From positions 1-46,772 of the forward strand of contig JBDHHZ010000017.1 in assembly GCA_039589115.1 (NCBI GenBank): a DNA stretch of 46,772 nucleotides, given 5' to 3'. The notes under the pieces were generated by a model. It saw nothing but the letters and a program-made list of their open reading frames with translations, made no database searches and was not told the DNA's origin. Source of the stretch: Gemmatimonadota bacterium. GTDB taxonomy: Bacteria; Gemmatimonadota; Gemmatimonadetes; Palauibacterales; KS3-K002. The first letter of the stretch is position 1; every line of letters begins with the position of its first letter. The translations under genes and the position numbers were made by a program. Positions 36,868 to 44,082 of this stretch are shown here, in pieces.

Positions 36868-37629
36868 ATGACTCTGGAGATCGTGAAGAAGACATACGAA
36901 AAGCTGGGTCGAGAGGATCCCCTATATGCCGTGCTGTCCGACGACAAGCTCCGGCACAACAAGTGGGATCCGGCCGAGTTCTTCCAGACTGGAGTGCGAG
37001 AGATTCGGGAAGTGCTCGAGTACGTCGACCGTCTCGCCCTTCCGCTCGAGCGGCAGCGAGTGCTCGACTTCGGTTGCGGGGTGGGGCGCCTGAGCCAGGC
37101 GCTTGCCGAACACTTCGAGCAGGTCGTGGGTGTGGATATCGCGGAATCCATGGTCCAAGAAGCCCGCAAGTTCAACAGGCATGGCGACCGCGTCGAATAT
37201 CGGGCCAACAGCACCGATAACCTGGAGATCCTCGACAGCAACTCTTTCGACTTCGTGTACACGTACATAACCCTGCAGCACATACCTCCGGAACCAGCAG
37301 AGAACTATATCCGCGAGTTCTTCCGCGTGCTCCGACCGGGCGGGATCGCGATCTTTCACGTCCACACCGGTAAGCTATACGAAGCCGGTTCACTGCGTGC
37401 CTGGCTGTACAACCTTCGGCGTCGGCGCTTGCGTAGAATCTGGAAGATCGTTCGCGGTCGGCCGCCAGTCGAGATGCACTACATCGCGCGTGAGCGAGTC
37501 GAGCGTATTGTCGAAGAGAGCGGTGGCCGAATGGCCGACGTTGTGGATGCGGGGGAGGGACGAAGACGCGGGAGGAGCTTTCGATACTACGCCGTGAAAT
37601 CGAGGTCCTCGAAGGAAGAACCAGTCTGA
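36868..37629 (+). CDS. Class I SAM-dependent methyltransferase
   Basis: VLDFGCGVGRL, VGVDIA, SFDFV and RVLRPGG; ATG 36868 preferred as start. Confidence 0.92.
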   Translation: MTLEIVKKTYEKLGREDPLYAVLSDDKLRHNKWDPAEFFQTGVREIREVLEYVDRLALPLERQRVLDFGCGVGRLSQALAEHFEQVVGVDIAESMVQEARKFNRHGDRVEYRANSTDNLEILDSNSFDFVYTYITLQHIPPEPAENYIREFFRVLRPGGIAIFHVHTGKLYEAGSLRAWLYNLRRRRLRRIWKIVRGRPPVEMHYIARERVERIVEESGGRMADVVDAGEGRRRGRSFRYYAVKSRSSKEEPV

Positions 37630-37638
37630 GGAAAAGCT

Positions 37639-37812
37639 CGACATTCGACAACCGACATTCGACAGCCGACACTCGACGCTCGAGTACTGCCCGATGATCG
37701 AGTCTCAACGCTCCACTTCCGACGCTCGGCGGACGTCGAAAGTAGGACGTCGAAGGTCGAGAGTCGAGTAGTACTCGGATGTCGATTGTCGAATGTCGGC
37801 TGTCGGCTGTCC
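37639..37812. repeat. Heptamer-array palindromic element, copy 2
   Basis: CGAGTAC at 37681 and GTACTCG at 37771, flanked by CGACANN and NNTGTCG arrays; between convergent genes. Confidence 0.88.
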
Positions 37813-37821
37813 TCCGGCCTC

Positions 37822-40095
37822 TTACCAAGCAAAGGTATAGGTGTATTTCAGCAGTATCGTCCGGTTATCGGTGAGCGGCAGGGCCGGCTCGCTGCGGTCC
37901 CGGTCGAGGTTGTACCCCTCGTTGTAGACCAACCACAGGTCGTTGCCCTCGCGGAAGTTGTAACGCAGCCGGACGTTGGCCGCGCCGAAATCGCTGATGT
38001 TGCTGTACTGCAAGAAGGCGTTCACCGAGAATTTCGTGTCGAGCGCCGTCCCGATCCTCAGTCGCCCGATGTGCGCGTCGAAGCCCTGGTCGCGGTCCGG
38101 GAACCGCACGATGTCGATCTCATACTGGAAGGTGAACTCGAGGTGGCGCGAGACGTTCCAGCGTGGGACCAGCCAGATGTTCGTTCGCCAACCATCGTAG
38201 AAAGCCTGCGCACCTCCACCGACGAAGAAGCGGAACGGCGTGCCCGGTGGCATGCTGAAGTCGAACTCGAAGCGCGGGAACGTATAGCTGCCCGGCGGGA
38301 CGTAGGTCCCGAGCGGGAAGTCCAGTGTCTCGCGCACGTCCTCATAGTAGAGCTCCAGATCGAGCCCCAGCCATGCCCCGGATCGCCAACCGAAATCGAC
38401 GTCGTGCTCGACGAATGCCGACTCGACGCTGCCGTCCGGATTGCGCAATGCGACCGACCCGAACAGTTGGAACGGATCGATCCTGCGAAACGGCCCAGCC
38501 TCGGGGTAGTGGAAGTAGGCGACCGAGTAGTAGAAGTCGCTGAAGTTGCGGCGCGTCACGAAGCCCATCTCGGGGTTGTAGTCCGCGCCGAACCGGCGAG
38601 CGCTGAAGAAATACGAGAACCCGCGCTCCCGTGCTCGGTCGAGGTAAAGGCGTACCGCGCTGGCCTCGGCGAACCGGAACCCGCGATCGGCGATGATCTG
38701 GTCGTCGACGCTCTGGGCCAGGCGGATACCCAGGTAGTCGTCGCCGGTGTAGCGGAACGTGCCGTCGAGGCCATACGCGATGTTGTAGGAGCCGTCGTCT
38801 CCCAGCCTCGTCGTGAGCATCGCCCCGGCGTTCGAGTACTGGTTGAAGACGCGGCGGCGTGCCCGGGCGACCCCGAAGTTCTCGGACGGCAGATGGGTGC
38901 TCCGCTTCGTCTGCATGTCGAGGACGCCGACATCCCAATCGCCGACCCGGCCCACCAACCTCGCACCGCCGATGATCGGGATCGCCTCACCTTCGTAAAG
39001 CCCGATGTGTCGGCTGTAGAATAGCCGCGTCGCACCGCCGGTGAAGAAGTCGAATACGCCGGATCTCTCCTGGAAGAACTGGCGCTTCTCGGGGAAGAAC
39101 AGCGAGAAGCGCGTCAGGTTGACCTGCCAGTCGTCCGCCTCGACCTGCGCGAAGTCGGTGTTGACGGTGAGGTCGGCCGTCAGGTTGCTCGTCACGTTGT
39201 ACTTGAGATCGCCTCCAACCTGGCCCTCTACTTCGCTGTCCAGTTGGTAGCGATCTCCAACGCTGGTCAGCACCGCGTCTTGTCCCACACCGCTCAGCAC
39301 GTAAGGTGTGAGGTACACCGGCCTGTGCGTGCTCACGCCCTCCAGAATCGCGTCCTGCGCCAGCGACGGCCTCAGGTAGTCGAACTCGGGCGGGATCTCC
39401 GGGAACACCTGCCGCTCGTTCTTCCGCGGGATGTAGCGGTAGGCGGAGATGCCCATCTCCACCCGCTGATCGACGGCCTGAAATCCCAGGCTCGAGAACG
39501 GGATCCGCAGCTCGGCGAACCAGCCCTCCTCCGTCTCCACCGCCGCCACGTCCCAGTAGGTGTTCCAGCTGCCGTTCCAGCTGCCCGCGCCGTCCCCGGC
39601 GATCGATACGTCCCCGCGCAGGCCCGCCGGTGTCGTGAAGAACCAGAGACCGATGTCGTTGTCGTTGAATGGATCGACCACCATGCCGAAGCAGTCGTCG
39701 CCGCTCAAACGGTCCCGGTACATCGAGTTCACCTGAATCCCCGACGGATCGGAGTCGTAGAAACGCCCTGCCACATAGAGGAACTCATCATCATAGCCGA
39801 TGCGGATCTCCGTCCGCTCCGTCAGCTCACCCCGGAACGATGGCGTGTACATCGTCATCGGAAGCGGCTCGATACCGCGCCAGGCGGCCTCGTCGCTCGG
39901 GCCATCCAGCTCCACCGGCCCGTCCAGCCGCGACAGTACGATGAGCGTGTCCGGTGCCCTCCAGCTCGGGTCCGCGCCTTCCTGCGCCGCCAGCTCGGAA
40001 GCCCCTGGCGGAAAGGCTGCGGCCAGCGCCACGACCGACCCGAGGATCAGGCGAGCTGCGGGCTTATCTGTAAAGATTTTTTCATATATGCGCAT
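37822..40095 (-). CDS. Outer-membrane protein: CBM9/DOMON-like domain and DUF5916-like beta-barrel
   Basis: Signal peptide; LDGPSDEAAW, GWFAELRIPFSSL and NTDFAQVEAD...NLTRFSLFFPEKRQFFQE; aromatic C-terminus YTYTFAW; start ATG 40095. Confidence 0.85.
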   Translation of the reverse strand: MRIYEKIFTDKPAARLILGSVVALAAAFPPGASELAAQEGADPSWRAPDTLIVLSRLDGPVELDGPSDEAAWRGIEPLPMTMYTPSFRGELTERTEIRIGYDDEFLYVAGRFYDSDPSGIQVNSMYRDRLSGDDCFGMVVDPFNDNDIGLWFFTTPAGLRGDVSIAGDGAGSWNGSWNTYWDVAAVETEEGWFAELRIPFSSLGFQAVDQRVEMGISAYRYIPRKNERQVFPEIPPEFDYLRPSLAQDAILEGVSTHRPVYLTPYVLSGVGQDAVLTSVGDRYQLDSEVEGQVGGDLKYNVTSNLTADLTVNTDFAQVEADDWQVNLTRFSLFFPEKRQFFQERSGVFDFFTGGATRLFYSRHIGLYEGEAIPIIGGARLVGRVGDWDVGVLDMQTKRSTHLPSENFGVARARRRVFNQYSNAGAMLTTRLGDDGSYNIAYGLDGTFRYTGDDYLGIRLAQSVDDQIIADRGFRFAEASAVRLYLDRARERGFSYFFSARRFGADYNPEMGFVTRRNFSDFYYSVAYFHYPEAGPFRRIDPFQLFGSVALRNPDGSVESAFVEHDVDFGWRSGAWLGLDLELYYEDVRETLDFPLGTYVPPGSYTFPRFEFDFSMPPGTPFRFFVGGGAQAFYDGWRTNIWLVPRWNVSRHLEFTFQYEIDIVRFPDRDQGFDAHIGRLRIGTALDTKFSVNAFLQYSNISDFGAANVRLRYNFREGNDLWLVYNEGYNLDRDRSEPALPLTDNRTILLKYTYTFAW
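40067..40086 (-). promoter_or_regulatory. Putative BlaI operator inside the 5' coding region of the barrel gene
   Basis: TATGAAAAAATCTTTACAGA, 18/20 identical to the site at 43329-43348. Confidence 0.7.
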
Positions 40096-40169
40096 GGGAA
40101 AACCCTCATGGTCCGGGGGAGCCGCAGGGGCCGGAGCCCCTGCGGCCCTTCCGGTAGACGGCACCCGGG

Positions 40170-41072
40170 CTACGCGGAGGCGCGGCCCCGGTCCCGGCCC
40201 GCATTGTCACGCTCGGAGCGCTTGTGCTCGTTGTAACGCGACGGGTTGGTTTCGTCGAGCGACCAGACTGCCATGGCGCGGACGGCTGGATCGCGATCGC
40301 GGAGCGCGTCGAGGAGCGGATCCACGGCGCGCTCGTCGCCCAGTCTGCCGAGCCGTTCGGCCGCCGATAGCCGAGTCTGTGGGTCGTCGTCGCTCAGAGC
40401 GGTGATCAAGCTGGAGGCGTCATCCGCCATCGGCCGGGCCCTGAAGCTTCCCAAGTGGCCGGTCCAGACCTCGTCGTTCTCGTAGGGGTAGCGTCCCGCT
40501 TCGCTGAAGATGGCGTCGCGCGCTCTCGGGGCTTCGCCCTCTCCGATCTCGCCGAGCGCCCAGATGACCGGTTCGCGGAGCTCGCTGTGCCGGTCGAGCG
40601 CTTCGGTCAGCGCGGAGACCGCCGAGGGATGTTCGATCTCTCCCAACGACAGCACGGCCATCTCGCGCACCAGCGGGTCGTCGTCTCCCAGCAGCTCGAT
40701 CAGCGGTTGGATGGCCATGTAGTCCTTGATCTCGCCAAGAGCCCAGGCGGCGACGAGGCGTACGTCTGCATCGCGATCTTCCAGACGCTCGATCAGCGGC
40801 CTTACACCTTCGGTGCTCTCGAGCTCGCCGAGCGCCCAGGCCGCATAACGTCTGACGAGTGGATCGCTGTCTTCCAGCTCGCGGATGCGCTGGATCGCGG
40901 CGTCGCTGCTCTGAGTTGCTCCCAGCAGTTCGACGGCCGGTGCGATCTGCGCGAGGGCGATCCTGAACAGGCGCGTTGCGTGGAGTTCCGAGCCCAAGCC
41001 GATGACCGCCGCGACTACGAGAGCGATGAAGGCGAGTCGTCTAAATGTAAATGTTTTTTCATATGTGGACAT
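40170..41072 (-). CDS. Exported HEAT/PBS-lyase repeat protein; paralog of the sensor's C-terminal domain
   Basis: GGAGGT RBS; signal or TM segment; repeated D.D..VR..AAWALGE units. Confidence 0.9.
   Translation of the reverse strand: MSTYEKTFTFRRLAFIALVVAAVIGLGSELHATRLFRIALAQIAPAVELLGATQSSDAAIQRIRELEDSDPLVRRYAAWALGELESTEGVRPLIERLEDRDADVRLVAAWALGEIKDYMAIQPLIELLGDDDPLVREMAVLSLGEIEHPSAVSALTEALDRHSELREPVIWALGEIGEGEAPRARDAIFSEAGRYPYENDEVWTGHLGSFRARPMADDASSLITALSDDDPQTRLSAAERLGRLGDERAVDPLLDALRDRDPAVRAMAVWSLDETNPSRYNEHKRSERDNAGRDRGRASA
41044..41063 (-). promoter_or_regulatory. Putative BlaI operator inside the 5' coding region of the HEAT gene
   Basis: TATGAAAAAACATTTACATT, 16/20 identical to the site at 43329-43348. 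Confidence 0.65.
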
Positions 41073-41109
41073 GATCTACCTCCGTTCCATCGTCAGGGTT
41101 GGCTAGCTC

Positions 41110-42921
41110 TTACTCGGTGTTCTGATGACGCGACGGGTTAATCTCGTCGAGCGCCCAGATCGCCATGGCGCGCACCGAGGGCTCCGGATCGCGTAGCGCA
41201 TCGAGGAGCGGGTCGACGGCGCTTTGCTCGCCGCGCAGCCCGAGCCACTCGGCAGCGGAGCGCCGCATCTTGGGATCGTCGTCGTCGAGAGCGTCGATCA
41301 GGGCGGACAGGTCTCCGGCGAAGCGGCGAGCGGCGTCGCTGCCCAGGTAACCGCTCCAGACGTCCTGGTTGTCCCAGCCGCGTCGTCCGATCTGAGCGAA
41401 GACGGCGCTTCTGGCTCTCTCGGCCTCGTGGTTGCCGATCTCGCCGAGCGCCCAGATTGCCGGTTCTCTGAGCTCGGGATGGCGGTCGAGCGACTCAATC
41501 AGCGGGTCGATCGCCGAGGGGTTCTCTATCTCCCCCAGCGCGAGGACTGCCATCTCGCGGACGAACGGATCGTCGTCGTCTAGGCGCTCGACCAGCGGGT
41601 AGATGGCTATGTCGTCCTTTATCTCGCCGAGCGCCCAGGCGGCGACCAGGCGGACGTCGGCATTCTCGTCAGTCAAACCTTCGATCAGTGGTCTCACGCC
41701 GCGCGAGCTCTCGAGCTCACCCAACGCCCAAGCCGCATGCCGTCTAACGAGGGGATCGTCGTCCTGCAGCTGGCGGACGCGCTGCTCCACCGAGTCGCCC
41801 ACCTGGACCGTGCCCCAGATGTCGACGCTCGCCAGCGGCAGAGCGAACAGCAGTGCGGCGACGGCGGTGGAGAACAACCGGCCCTGAGACATGGGCGCTC
41901 GATCCAGTTCTCTGGCGAGAATGCTGCGGAAGCGCGTCGCCAAGCTGGACGGCTGCGCCATGGCGAACGCTGCGCGTGGTGCGTCATCGGAGACCTGCGC
42001 GCGGGCGATCTCGAACAGATGCGAAGCGTACACATCGGAGCGGACGCCGGCGTACAGCGCTTGGTCGTCGCAGGCTCGCTCGCGTTCCATGGCGCCTTGC
42101 TTTGCGGCGATCCAGACGAGCGGGTTAAACCAATAGATCGCGCACACGACCTCGACCATGAGCAAAACGGCCCAATCCCACCGTCTGATGTGAGCTAGCT
42201 CATGCAGTAGCACGATGTGGGTTCGCTGCGTCGACCATGTGGCCATAGCTTCCGGCAGGATCACTGCGGGAGTCCAGGCGCCCCACGTGAGCGGCACCTT
42301 CACTTCGTCGCTCACGAGGATGCGGATCCGACGTCGAATTCCCAAGCTCACCGCCAGTCGGCGTGCGAGATCGTGAACCGCCGCGGAACTGCAGTTCGAA
42401 GCCCGCCGCGTGATACACCGAATCCGCAGCGTGTCGACGCCCAGGCGGCCAAGCAGAGCTAGCACACCCAGCAACCAGATCACCAGAGCGATAGCCACAG
42501 GGGAGGCCCCCGACGCAGCGGATTTCTGCGAGTCCGCTTGCTCGAACGGGACAGTGACCGCAGGCGAAGTCCCTCTCGTTCCCACCGTCCCTCGTGTAGC
42601 AGCAGGTCGCGCGGCGGGCGAGGAGCTCTCGAGGCGCTCAGAACAGCACTGCGTGGCATCGCTCGGCAACACGGTCTCCGTCTCCATCGAGACGTACAGC
42701 CGCCCCAGCTTCCACGCTGGAAGCGCTCCGGAGAGGATCGGCAGAAGGAGCAGACAGCCGAGCGCGACACTCCATACCGCGTGTCGCGTGGCTGCGGAGC
42801 CACACCGCAGATACCAGGCTGCTATTCCGGCGACGGCTAGAACGATCGTCGCCTTCAGCAGGACATCGATCGCAAGGTCGATGGCGAACGCTGTGTATGG
42901 ATTAGTCAGAGCCTCACCCAT
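41110..42921 (-). CDS. BlaR1/MecR1-like M56 metallopeptidase sensor with extracytoplasmic HEAT repeats
   Basis: SAATRHAVW, VPLTWG, LLHELAHIRRWD (HExxH), YWFNPLVW and ERACDD; a TM followed by HEAT repeats; start ATG 42921. Confidence 0.93.
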   Translation of the reverse strand: MGEALTNPYTAFAIDLAIDVLLKATIVLAVAGIAAWYLRCGSAATRHAVWSVALGCLLLLPILSGALPAWKLGRLYVSMETETVLPSDATQCCSERLESSSPAARPAATRGTVGTRGTSPAVTVPFEQADSQKSAASGASPVAIALVIWLLGVLALLGRLGVDTLRIRCITRRASNCSSAAVHDLARRLAVSLGIRRRIRILVSDEVKVPLTWGAWTPAVILPEAMATWSTQRTHIVLLHELAHIRRWDWAVLLMVEVVCAIYWFNPLVWIAAKQGAMERERACDDQALYAGVRSDVYASHLFEIARAQVSDDAPRAAFAMAQPSSLATRFRSILARELDRAPMSQGRLFSTAVAALLFALPLASVDIWGTVQVGDSVEQRVRQLQDDDPLVRRHAAWALGELESSRGVRPLIEGLTDENADVRLVAAWALGEIKDDIAIYPLVERLDDDDPFVREMAVLALGEIENPSAIDPLIESLDRHPELREPAIWALGEIGNHEAERARSAVFAQIGRRGWDNQDVWSGYLGSDAARRFAGDLSALIDALDDDDPKMRRSAAEWLGLRGEQSAVDPLLDALRDPEPSVRAMAIWALDEINPSRHQNTE

Positions 42922-43297
42922 GGGACTTCCTCTCTTCTTCGATCCACTCGGCGATCTCGTCCAGCTCGTCACGCGACAGCTTCGACATACCGAGAAGCGT
43001 CAGCATCGCCCGGGATGGTGACCCGCGGAAGAACGTGTGCAGGAGATTGCGTACCGCGGATCGGGAGGCCGCCTCGTGAGGGACCGTCGGGCTGTAGACG
43101 TAGCGGCGGCCTTCCTGCCGGTGCTTCACGTGGCCCTTCTTCTCCAAGATGCCCAGCGTCACCCGCACAGAGTCGTATCCCGCATCCTCATCCATGCGGC
43201 CGAAAACGTCCGCCACGCTCGCCTCGCCCAGGCGATAAACGACGTTCATGATCTCTCGCTCGCGGCGGCTCAGCTGGTTCTGCGGGGTCTTCTTCAC
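42914..43297 (-). CDS. BlaI/MecI/CopY-family repressor
   Basis: LSRREREIMNVVY...VRVTLGILEKKGHV....GRRYVY...TFFRGS; overlaps the M56 start. Confidence 0.94.
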   Translation of the reverse strand: MKKTPQNQLSRREREIMNVVYRLGEASVADVFGRMDEDAGYDSVRVTLGILEKKGHVKHRQEGRRYVYSPTVPHEAASRSAVRNLLHTFFRGSPSRAMLTLLGMSKLSRDELDEIAEWIEEERKSHG

Positions 43298-43328
43298 AGG
43301 GCACTCTCCGGGGAGGAGGCCAGCAGCT

Positions 43329-43383
43329 TATGAAAAAATCTTTTCATATGGCCCAAAGTAGTACCCCCTCACCAGGGTGTCAA
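43329..43383 (-). promoter_or_regulatory. Sigma70 promoter and palindromic operator of the blaI operon
   Basis: Minus strand TTGACA(43383-43378)-N17-TACTTT(43360-43355); TATGAAAA-AATC-TTTTCATA palindrome at 43329-43348, at the predicted +1. Confidence 0.82.
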
Positions 43384-43446
43384 GTTTATTGTGGGGCCTA
43401 TCCACCCTACGGTTCGGTGGTCGCTGCGGTTTCTGAGAAAGAGGAT

Positions 43447-43599
43447 CGACATTGGACAGCCGACAGCCGACATTCGAGTACAACTCGACTACCGACGTCC
43501 GACTCCCAACGTTCGACGTCCGTGGAAGATCGAGCGTAGAACGTTGACCGTCGAGTAGTACTCGGGGGTCGAATGTCGATTGTGGGCTGTCGAATGTCG
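43447..43599. repeat. Heptamer-array palindromic element, copy 3
   Basis: CGAGTAC at 43475 and GTACTCG at 43558, with the same flanking arrays. Confidence 0.88.
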
Positions 43600-43610
43600 A
43601 GTAGTTACGC

Positions 43611-43646
43611 AAAAAAAATTGCCGGGACACCTATCGGTGCCCCGGC
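43611..43646 (-). terminator. Rho-independent terminator
   Basis: Minus strand GCCGGGGCACC-GATA-GGTGTCCCGGC-AATTTTTTTT. Confidence 0.8.
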
Positions 43647-43689
43647 GCAGATTCCTGTTCAAGGTGCGCGAATTAGCGCTCGTTAGGCT

Positions 43690-43773
43690 CTATTCCTGCT
43701 CCTCGTAGGAACGCCACACCAGCACCACCGGGGGCACTAGGATGACGCTTGCAATCAAAATCGCGGTCAACAT
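43690..43773 (-). CDS. Putative 27-aa single-TM small protein
   Basis: MLTAILIASVILVPPVVLVWRSYEEQE*; GGAAGGA upstream; followed by its own terminator; below the ORF-track size cut-off. Confidence 0.5.
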   Translation of the reverse strand: MLTAILIASVILVPPVVLVWRSYEEQE

Positions 43774-44082
43774 CTGTCTGTCCTTCCGTCGGTTCTTCAC
43801 CGTGCACTCTCAAGGCTACGGTACATCGTCATTGACCTTGCTCGTGGCGTGCGGGAGCAGCCCGCATCGCACTACTTTGTAGGGCAAACAACATGCCACT
43901 GTGCCGGCGCCGGAAGGCTAGCGGTGGTGCGGTTTTCTGGCAGGCTGGGGCGGGCTTCGCCCGGTCGGGGCCTCATTTCGAGCCGGACAGGGGACAAACT
44001 GACCTGCCGGCGAGCGCCTGCCCGTCGCGCGGGCTCGAGGAGCTGTTTGCTGGGTTACAATAGACCAGCTAGAGTTATTGCT

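Follow-up and report, generated by a model that had tools for sequence, protein, structure and literature searches.

The closest described relatives of the locus reported here are the BlaI/MecI-BlaR1/MecR1 systems of Staphylococcus aureus and Bacillus licheniformis, together with the related CopY, in which, as here, a Penicillinase_R winged-helix repressor stands beside an M56 membrane sensor with an HExxH motif. In these systems too, AT-rich palindromic operators lie over the repressor's own promoter, and such loci usually carry more than one operator. BlaI and MecI are described as homodimers in the cited part of PMC1935004, and the operators studied in Firmicutes have a dyad centred on TACANNTGTA, according to the cited parts of two reports (PMC1935004, PMC7253601). 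The locus analysed here differs in that its palindromes have the form TGxAAA-N4-TTTxCA, the sensor carries HEAT repeats in place of a penicillin-binding domain, and blaI, blaR1 and the effector genes are co-directional, whereas the described systems are divergent from the effector gene. In addition, extra putative operators are found in coding sequence, about 2.3 and 3.3 kb past the promoter.

Auxiliary or roadblock operators inside genes are known for other regulators, such as lacO2 in lacZ, galOI in galE and the PurR site in purB, and CcpA cre sites inside coding regions are further examples. The C-protein roadblock of Kpn2I is another intragenic case, as presented in the cited part of PMC6237814. 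In all of these, as here, a copy of the promoter operator lies in coding sequence, where looping or a block to elongation is acting or proposed. Unlike them, the present site is placed at the boundary between regulator and effector genes, within the first 2-13 signal-peptide codons, and is kept across an order-level clade with a traceable co-change of operator, downstream copy and recognition helix. To our knowledge, no such boundary operator is known for the BlaI family, and narrow literature word searches (BlaI with roadblock, coding region or Gemmatimonadetes) returned no description of intragenic BlaI operators.

Results

Genes of the blaI operon

The window, the whole 46,772-nucleotide stretch of Gemmatimonadota DNA that was analysed, carries the operon on its minus strand. 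The blaI gene (42914..43297, GTG start) encodes a BlaI/MecI-family repressor of 127 aa that matches Pfam Penicillinase_R (PF03965; 89.6 bits against a cut-off of 22.6, E 2.2e-25) and, over residues 8-117, the MecI structures 1sd6 and 1okr (E 1.6e-6). It is adjoined by a blaR1-like gene (41110..42921, minus strand), which overlaps its stop and encodes a protein of 603 aa with an M56 protease domain (Peptidase_M56, E 5.6e-35), a HELAH motif and a C-terminal HEAT-repeat domain (HEAT_2, E 5.8e-42). In the C-terminal half of BlaR1 only HEAT, HEAT_PBS and Arm repeat matches were obtained, with no penicillin-binding (class D beta-lactamase-like) sensor domain. Because the sensor domain consists of HEAT repeats and is not penicillin-binding, the signal that it senses is probably something other than a beta-lactam.

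Downstream, a gene on the same strand (40170..41072) encodes a stand-alone HEAT-repeat protein of 300 aa, whose N-terminus holds a hydrophobic anchor or signal and which shares about 63% identity with the C-terminal domain of BlaR1. It is followed by a gene (37822..40095, minus strand) for a DUF5916 protein of 757 aa (Pfam DUF5916, E 2.8e-16) with a signal peptide and the C-terminal sequence ...YTYTFAW; no paper was found with 'DUF5916' as literature search word.

Palindromes at the blaI promoter and in two downstream genes

The blaI promoter consists of a -35 box TTGACA (43378..43383, minus strand) and a -10 box TACTTT (43355..43360, minus strand). Since the -10 hexamer ends 8 nt upstream of it, the putative operator O1 (43329..43348, not assigned to a strand; core 43331-43346), a perfect 8+4+8 palindrome of sequence TATGAAAAGATTTTTTCATA, would occupy about +1 to +16. 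This overlap of the palindrome with blaI's own promoter is kept in 15/15 orthologous promoter regions, in all of which TTGAC(A/G) is present at the same offset and TTGAC(A/G)-17 bp-TAnnnT precedes the site.

A first-pass annotation of this DNA had claimed that the palindrome recurs within two downstream genes, starting at codon 4 of each, so that both products begin M-x-x-Y-E-K-(T/I)-F-T. Both parts of the claim were borne out. O2 (41044..41063, minus strand; core 41046-41061, TGAAAAAACATTTACA) and O3 (40067..40086, minus strand; core 40069-40084, TGAAAAAATCTTTACA) occupy codons 4-9 of the HEAT and DUF5916 genes, respectively, in the same direction of transcription; in both genes the 20-mer begins at codon 4, and the translations start with MSTYEKTFT and MRIYEKIFT. 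In a 20-mer search limited to 3 mismatches, O3 differed from O1 by 2 mismatches on the minus strand; O2 was unlisted there, as its 4 mismatches, counted by eye, exceed the limit. The 16-base core TGAAAA-N4-TTTWCA is exact at all three sites. With up to 1 mismatch allowed, 0.04 matches to this core are expected per window, and the observed count was reached by 0 of 100 shuffles. In the genome-wide motif scan suggested by the annotation, three exact sites were found in the whole assembly of the window's own genome (G000, 3,713,830 bases), every one of them in the blaI operon.

The strong ribosome-binding site proposed for the HEAT gene is indeed present, as a Shine-Dalgarno sequence GGAGG 6 nt 5' of the ATG. 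No alternative in-frame ATG, GTG or TTG was found in this gene from the preceding stop to about 40 nt past O2, and the sole alternative in the DUF5916 gene, a GTG lying 69 nt further upstream, lacks any Shine-Dalgarno-like match. The assigned starts of both genes have the support of a Shine-Dalgarno sequence. Therefore, O2 and O3 lie inside coding sequence; true start codons downstream of the motifs, which the annotation had named as an objection to its own claim, were seen in neither gene.

Conservation at orthologous loci

In family f1, the 18 loci with DNA available after blaR1, which include two near-duplicate pairs, all keep the site (up to 1 mismatch) at the 5' end of the gene after blaR1. 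This is the HEAT gene in 14 loci and the DUF5916 gene in the 4 that have no HEAT gene. TGWAAA-N4-TTTWCA is confined to the orthologous locus in genomes G002, G005, G006 and G022, with 2 sites each, and in G016, with 3. Two downstream sites in series, one per downstream gene, are present in the window, in G016 and in L051.

All f1 loci with both regions have the same motif at the promoter and about 2.3 kb downstream, and site quality is equal at both positions, the perfect palindrome being at the promoter in some genomes and in the gene in others. Both observations agree with O2 and O3 being auxiliary operators only, which would strengthen blaI repression by looping with O1 in the manner of lacO2, with no block to elongation. 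This explanation is nevertheless quite unlikely, given that the site always lies exactly at the blaR1/effector boundary and not elsewhere in the 2-3 kb, a placement that looping does not need, that a second downstream site would contribute little to a loop, and that BlaI and MecI are described as homodimers (PMC1935004), with no site-bridging oligomer found in the parts of the sources cited. The serial sites are needless for looping; they fit a leaky roadblock only loosely and would fit gene-specific promoters.

As a control, 43 other BlaI-family loci were inspected, each having a palindrome at the promoter and 3 kb or more of sequence downstream. Only two showed a downstream match when up to 2 mismatches were allowed, each with a GC-rich spacer, and a general rule for BlaI loci was rejected on the remaining 41/43. 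The four other blaI paralogues of G000, often on short contigs, have different palindromes and no palindrome-like downstream copy. Therefore, the putative downstream operator copy is specific to this clade.

Covariation with the recognition helix

Three other lineages have an altered promoter motif, TGTA-N8-TACA or TGCAAA-N4-TTTGCA, with a matching change in the downstream copy and in the BlaI recognition helix. The promoter site and the DUF5916 site are both TGTA-N8-TACA in family f2 (4/4 loci); the promoter and downstream sites are both TG(C/T)AAA-N4-T(T/C)TGCA in f3 (2/2 loci) and both of the TGAAAA type in f9 (1/1 locus). On the protein side, the helix YDSVRVTLGIL pairs with the TGAAAA half-site, YN(S/A/T)VRVT with half-sites of the TG(C/T)A type, YD(S/A)VRLTLGVL with TGTAG and, mostly, YSAVRAxLR with TGCTA. 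From these patterns, it is very probable that BlaI binds the predicted operators.

The other loci of this BlaI branch have TGCTA-N6-TAGCA in 45/51 cases, so that the branch as a whole departs from the TACANNTGTA rule given in the cited parts of the Firmicutes reports; in f2, the half-sites face outwards, unlike those of the TACANNTGTA-centred operators. As the half-site layout differs, binding geometry is not transferable from the studied Firmicutes structures.

Codon usage within the motif

The codons of 20 motif sites were compared with background codon shares from 963 long ORFs of G000. The Glu codon is GAA at 20/20 sites, as against 23% of Glu codons in these ORFs, and the Phe codon is TTT at 18/20, as against 8% of Phe codons. 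An xCA codon is used at 19/20 sites, and T is the last base of the first motif codon in every case, whether Y, D, H or S is encoded. The GC3 count is 12/120 (10%) in the motif, as against 396/500 (79%) in the next 25 codons.

The annotation had offered a shared N-terminal peptide signal as an alternative. On this reading, M-x-x-Y-E-K-x-F-T would function in sorting or in recognition by a protease, and the palindrome would be a by-product. Two different proteins do share the peptide at the same position, and its E and F are invariant across f1. However, residues at motif codons 1, 3 and 4 vary (Y/D/H/S, K/N/R and T/I/N/F/K/L, respectively) while the half-site bases remain constant, and the f2 peptide, N/T-V-x-F-C/Y-T, tracks the operator change. 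Moreover, the downstream site is untranslated in f3 and f9, where it lies in the 5' UTR ahead of the Shine-Dalgarno sequence; it is read in another phase in L048, and a different reading phase holds for a Rhodothermales locus; and the same sequence is present at the non-coding promoter. A peptide signal is thus hardly credible. In the comparison of palindrome bases with amino acids in orthologs, which the annotation had called for, the bases are kept, by rare synonymous codons, and the residues at these three codons vary. Since the motif is conserved, covarying, phase-independent and rich in rare codons, it is best regarded as a DNA element. The claim of an operator dual-coded in both gene starts agrees with this conservation, with the covariation with promoter and helix, with the uniqueness of the sites and with the codon pattern, and it is strongly supported by these comparisons that the same DNA encodes the signal peptide and a repressor operator at both downstream genes.

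RNA structure around the sites

An action of the motif in mRNA, as a hairpin, a protein or RNase site, or an AU-rich start easing translation initiation, was also considered. All three window sites are probably transcribed, O1 being at about +1, and O1 folds as an 8-bp AU hairpin; gene starts are, besides, often AT-rich in GC-rich genomes. Against this, the minimum-energy fold shows no hairpin at O2 or O3 (z +1.3 for the O2 stretch), and no Rfam family matched positions 37400-43800 at E up to 1. Some promoter copies would also be untranscribed, as they lie between the -35 and -10 boxes (L026, L047), upstream of the -35 box (L041, L042) or, by reading, over the -10 box (f2). The motif further tracks the DNA-recognition helix of BlaI, and a genome-unique match of 12 positions is beyond the reach of general AT-richness. 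The mRNA element put forward in the annotation fits poorly with these data and is very unlikely.

The spacer between the HEAT and DUF5916 genes contains a GC-rich hairpin with a 13-bp stem (40119..40148, minus strand), without a U-run directly after it; the fold of a 116-nt stretch that includes it has -55.8 kcal/mol and z -4.05. The corresponding spacer of G016 is shorter. If this hairpin terminates transcription, O3 requires its own promoter.

Search for internal promoters

The possible ending of the upstream transcript at this hairpin is one of three points in favour of O2 and O3 serving separate BlaI-repressed promoters, located either at the 3' end of the gene before or within the short spacer; the others are that the window, G016 and L051 have a separate site for each downstream gene, and that the f2 spacers of roughly 70-100 nt, from the blaR1 stop to the candidate DUF5916 start, could house a promoter. 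In contrast, a simple sigma-70 consensus scan, which could overlook the phylum's own promoters or those read by alternative sigma factors, found a TTGACA-like/TAnnnT pair within 160 nt upstream at 0/18 internal f1 sites, versus 15/15 blaI promoter sites. The f1 spacers are only about 35-45 nt long and are taken up by the Shine-Dalgarno sequence. Furthermore, any start site that still included the ribosome-binding site would be about 30 nt or more upstream of the operator, which would then be a promoter-proximal roadblock anyway. Separate internal promoters are rather unlikely, and within the reach of this consensus scan the 0/18 count makes a roadblock or looping action on transcription from the blaI promoter the best-supported mechanism.

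A generic promoter scan of positions 39800-43600, with stricter thresholds, listed no promoter-like site; the blaI promoter itself was missed, since its -10 box has only 3/6 consensus bases. The same generic scan gave 5 terminator-like sites (2.0 expected) in this region, none at the operators.

Two further candidates were rejected. In genus g1, the sequence ahead of O2 (GGGATTACTATG) is similar to the -10 region that precedes O1; it has no -35 partner, and a transcript begun there would lack the HEAT start codon. An ATG in O1 opens a 17-codon frame, a possible leaderless uORF whose TGA overlaps the blaI GTG. Similar frames are present in G002 and G004, those of G003 and G007 stop after 1-6 codons, and the frame is thus not conserved.

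Discussion

We propose that the three 16-bp AT-rich palindromes are BlaI operators, of which O2 and O3 most likely act on RNA polymerase coming from the blaI promoter; from sequence comparison, we give this reading a probability of roughly 0.55. BlaI at O1, over about +1 to +16, would repress its own promoter. Polymerase that escapes from it would meet BlaI bound at O2 or O3, within the signal-peptide-coding part of each of the two effector genes after blaR1, where elongation would be blocked at a conditional stop; a loop to O1 may strengthen the block. With basal transcription, repressor and sensor would remain supplied while the HEAT and DUF5916 genes are off. Inactivation of BlaI by the M56 protease BlaR1 would then free all operators and allow transcription of the entire operon. 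That roadblock alone is the main mode has close to an even chance. More tentatively, at somewhat under even odds, the locus may be a two-stage operon with one promoter, in which internal operators serve as conditional terminators at the first effector codons and operator selection has fixed the hexapeptide.

The locus provides a comparatively validated case in which one DNA stretch would code at once for a signal peptide and for a repressor operator, at a cost to the protein that shows in its rare codons, its N-terminal extension and an acidic n-region residue. If the two-stage reading is true, operator selection has fixed Y-E-K/N/R-x-F-S/T in signal peptides across an order. For an uncharacterised Gemmatimonadota BlaI/BlaR1 pair, whose HEAT-repeat sensor domain points to an envelope signal other than beta-lactams, the analysis also defines the predicted operator and the full regulon, which is strictly local. 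If the roadblock operates, an autoregulated sensor-repressor pair would stay expressed while its co-transcribed effectors remain silent. Because the recognition helix varies between lineages in step with the operator and its downstream copy, specificity rules for the BlaI family become directly testable, and these parallel changes may represent a natural recognition code for a large unstudied branch of the family.

Organisation of the operon and its palindromes

Four consecutive genes occupy the minus strand of the window: blaI (43297-42914; Penicillinase_R, E 2.2e-25), a blaR1-like gene (42921-41110) whose M56 protease product contains HELAH and ends in a HEAT-repeat domain, a gene (41072-40170) for a stand-alone HEAT-repeat protein that has a hydrophobic segment at its N-terminus, and a gene (40095-37822) for a DUF5916 protein that begins with a signal peptide. 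By domain content, the repressor and the protease belong to the BlaI/BlaR1 families; the sensor is not a penicillin-binding domain. On either side, the operon is bordered by an imperfect palindrome of ~160 nt (43445-43605 and 37636-37812) made of the 7-nt units GTCGAAT, CGACATT and GACAGCC. The fold of 43440-43612 reaches -46.2 kcal/mol (z -6.2), and ten-base words of this palindrome have 51 occurrences, spread over 33 contigs, in the window's own assembly, G000 (503 contigs, 64% G+C). The blaI paralogue on contig C331 has a similar array upstream of it, and these palindromes look like a genome-wide intergenic repeat family.

The 20-mer at the blaI promoter (O1, 43329-43348) is a perfect 8+4+8 palindrome. 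It is repeated in the DUF5916 gene with two mismatches (O3, 40067-40086) and in the HEAT gene with four, counted from the sequence and beyond the mismatch limit of the search (O2, 41044-41063). The recurrence reported by the first-pass annotation was borne out, as all three places match the core TGAAAA-N4-TTTWCA exactly, with 0.04 matches of up to one mismatch expected per window. The motif is not common elsewhere, since a scan of the 3.7-Mb assembly returned three exact core matches only, namely O1, O2 and O3. Both translations also have the described start, M-x-x-Y-E-K-(T/I)-F-T, in two unrelated proteins.

A Shine-Dalgarno-like sequence precedes the ATG of both genes. An alternative in-frame start before the hydrophobic segment was sought in the HEAT gene and none was found, and the sole other in-frame start of the DUF5916 gene is a GTG 69 nt upstream, with no Shine-Dalgarno-like match. 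As the start codons are supported in this way and comparable alternatives are lacking, O2 and O3 lie within coding sequence, as had been proposed.

Upstream of blaI, a TTGAC(A/G)-17 bp-TAnnnT promoter was present in all 15 orthologous loci that include this region, and in each of them the -10 box ends 8 nt before the palindrome, which places O1 at about +1 to +16. A generic promoter scanner did not list the blaI promoter of the window among its matches, because its -10 box, TACTTT, has only 3 of 6 consensus bases. An ATG within O1 opens a 17-codon frame (MKRFFHKLLASSPESAL; 43297-43345, minus strand) whose TGA overlaps the GTG start of blaI. A comparable frame exists in the related genomes G002 and G004 and is cut short in G003 and G007; it is probably incidental.

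Conservation of the downstream site in orthologous loci

Within the locus family of the window (f1), the motif was found with up to one mismatch at the 5' end of the gene after blaR1 in all 18 loci with DNA there, a count that leaves out L031, where the sequence stops inside blaR1, and includes two pairs of near-duplicates (L021/L022 and L015/L023). The gene in this position encodes the HEAT protein in 14 loci and DUF5916 in the four genomes in which the HEAT gene is missing (G022, G013, G042 and G005). The site is therefore tied to the boundary that follows blaR1 and not to a particular protein. An additional copy at the DUF5916 gene was present only in the window and in G016; in the other genomes of the genus, the DUF5916 gene overlaps the HEAT stop codon and has no site. 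In whole-genome scans of G002, G005, G006, G022 and G016, TGWAAA-N4-TTTWCA was confined to the orthologous locus, and the predicted regulon is the operon of the window only.

The codons used at the 20 internal f1 sites follow the motif. The codon with its first T encodes Y, D, H or S and always ends in T. The Glu codon is GAA at 20/20 sites (23% of Glu codons in 963 long G000 ORFs), the Phe codon is TTT at 18/20 (8% of Phe codons in these ORFs), and the last motif codon is ACA or TCA at 19/20 (7% and 4% of the codons for their amino acids), while both codons across the 4-bp spacer are free to vary. G or C was found at 12 of 120 third positions in motif codons compared with 396 of 500 in the following 25 codons of the same genes, a contrast to which the mild AT enrichment often seen at gene starts may contribute. 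Judged from codon choice, the constraint at these internal sites is on the DNA and not on the peptide. The annotation had offered a shared N-terminal peptide as an alternative; this gave way to the orthologue comparison, in which the palindrome bases are kept in 18/18 f1 loci and the encoded residues vary, and to a lineage (f3) in which the site is untranslated.

Covariation of promoter and downstream sites in other lineages

In the sister family f2 (four loci, BlaR1 ~41% identical in the homologue search), the f1 pattern was found in 0/4 loci. Their blaI promoter regions carry one or two TGTA-N8-TACA palindromes, and a site of this type is also present within the first 6-15 codons of the DUF5916 gene, where the encoded peptide shifts with the operator (E to V, F to C or Y). 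In one f2 locus (L035, G113:C43), the signal-peptide frame that bears the operator is offset by a frameshift from the long DUF5916 frame, which leaves its coding status uncertain; the gene may be broken or the assembly in error. In f3, two genomes of another family, promoter and downstream sites are both TG(C/T)AAA-N4-T(T/C)TGCA, and the latter is untranslated, as it follows the blaR1 stop and precedes the ribosome-binding site of the next gene. In the single f9 genome, CGAAAA..TTTTCA follows the -10 box, and the 5' UTR of the next gene contains TGAAAAAATCTTTTCA.

Eleven further loci with closely related BlaI (55-74% identity) were examined, and in 9/11 the next gene downstream carried a clear site at its 5' end. 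L051 has two, each at about codons 4-10 of a signal peptide, and in L048 (Rhodothermales) the site covers codons 1-6 in a different reading phase. In L049 the 5' UTR holds a weak candidate only, and no downstream site was found in L053 (Planctomycetota). Among 66 more distant BlaI loci used as a control, a promoter palindrome was detected in 51, being TGCTA-N6-TAGCA in 45 of them, and a downstream match with up to two mismatches was present in only 2 of the 43 whose downstream DNA extends for at least 3 kb, both having a GC-rich spacer. The control loci (L054-L119) come from Acidobacteriota, Gemmatimonadota, Planctomycetota, Myxococcota and others; their TGCTA-N6-TAGCA palindromes lie just upstream of blaI, as tandem pairs in about half. 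G000 has four more blaI paralogues (contigs C331, C26, C467 and C184), whose promoter palindromes or repeats all differ, e.g. ATCTACTAC..GTAGTAGAT and TGCTACTGTAGTAGCA, and no downstream palindrome-like copy was found on these contigs as far as they extend.

The finding is real, and on this comparative evidence the main reading, a putative repressor operator dual-coded in the first codons of the downstream genes, stands. An mRNA element had been the other alternative. In loci L026 and L047 the promoter copy lies between -35 and -10, and in L041 and L042 it is upstream of the -35 box; as copies in these positions would be outside the transcript, they argue for a DNA and not an RNA element. The minimum-energy RNA fold has no hairpin at O2 or O3, and an Rfam search of the operon region gave no family match, so that the RNA alternative was not upheld.

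Proposed mechanism and origin

A sigma-70-like promoter was found within 160 nt upstream of 0/18 internal f1 sites compared with 15/15 at the blaI promoter, and the f1 spacers after blaR1 are about 35-45 nt long and contain the ribosome-binding site. The most economical reading is that BlaI at O2 and O3 would act on polymerase arriving from the blaI promoter. A serious rival is that internal promoters of an unrecognised type serve O2 and O3: it is favoured by the serial pair of sites seen in three lineages and by a strong hairpin (40119-40148) between the HEAT and DUF5916 genes of the window, whereas the 0/18 count speaks against it. This hairpin, with a perfect GC-rich 13-bp stem and no U-run immediately behind it, lies in the 73-nt HEAT-DUF5916 spacer, which is shorter in G016. 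It could act in termination or in processing, or be a repeat element.

If BlaI acts on arriving polymerase, it would block elongation at O2 and O3, possibly assisted by looping to O1. The autoregulated promoter would supply basal repressor and sensor with the effector genes silent, and the M56 protease, by cleaving BlaI, would open the whole operon at once.

The HEAT protein (40170-41072) shares ~63% identity with the C-terminal sensor domain of BlaR1 (41110-42165), up to the C-terminal ...LDE(I/T)NPSR. By this likeness it appears to be a recent duplicate of that domain, and it may function as a co-sensor or a decoy. In loci that lack the HEAT gene, the more distant f2 included, the site is at DUF5916. 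A tandem duplication spanning HEAT domain, stop codon, spacer, operator and start of the signal peptide would yield a new HEAT gene that has an N-terminus of the DUF5916 type and brings in a second operator, as in the window and G016 with their three sites; the third site would later have been lost in other genomes of the genus. Such a history is likely, and it would account for the nine N-terminal residues common to two unrelated proteins.

Relation to known systems and operator specificity

Operators within coding sequence that act by looping or as roadblocks include lacO2, galOI, PurR at purB and CcpA cre sites. Intragenic operators are thus known for other repressors, and the BlaI-family case appears new among the literature found, where narrow word searches returned no description of one; a similar search for DUF5916 found nothing. 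The layout in the window differs from that of the studied Firmicutes BlaI/MecI systems, whose operators are TACANNTGTA-centred dyads according to two reports (PMC1935004, PMC7253601). The putative action at O2 and O3 resembles that of the Kpn2I C-protein, described as a roadblock (PMC6237814).

The predicted recognition helix of BlaI varies with the half-site, which, in lineages related to one another, counts as a pattern and not as a statistical result. YDSVRVTLGIL pairs with TGAAAA, YN(S/A/T)VRVT with TG(C/T)A-type half-sites (TGCAAA, TGTAAA and variants), YD(S/A)VRLTLGVL with TGTAG, and NSSIRVMLR with TGCGAA, and the helix is mostly YSAVRAxLR where the half-site is TGCTA. A helix that differs by operator class may amount to a usable specificity code for the BlaI family.
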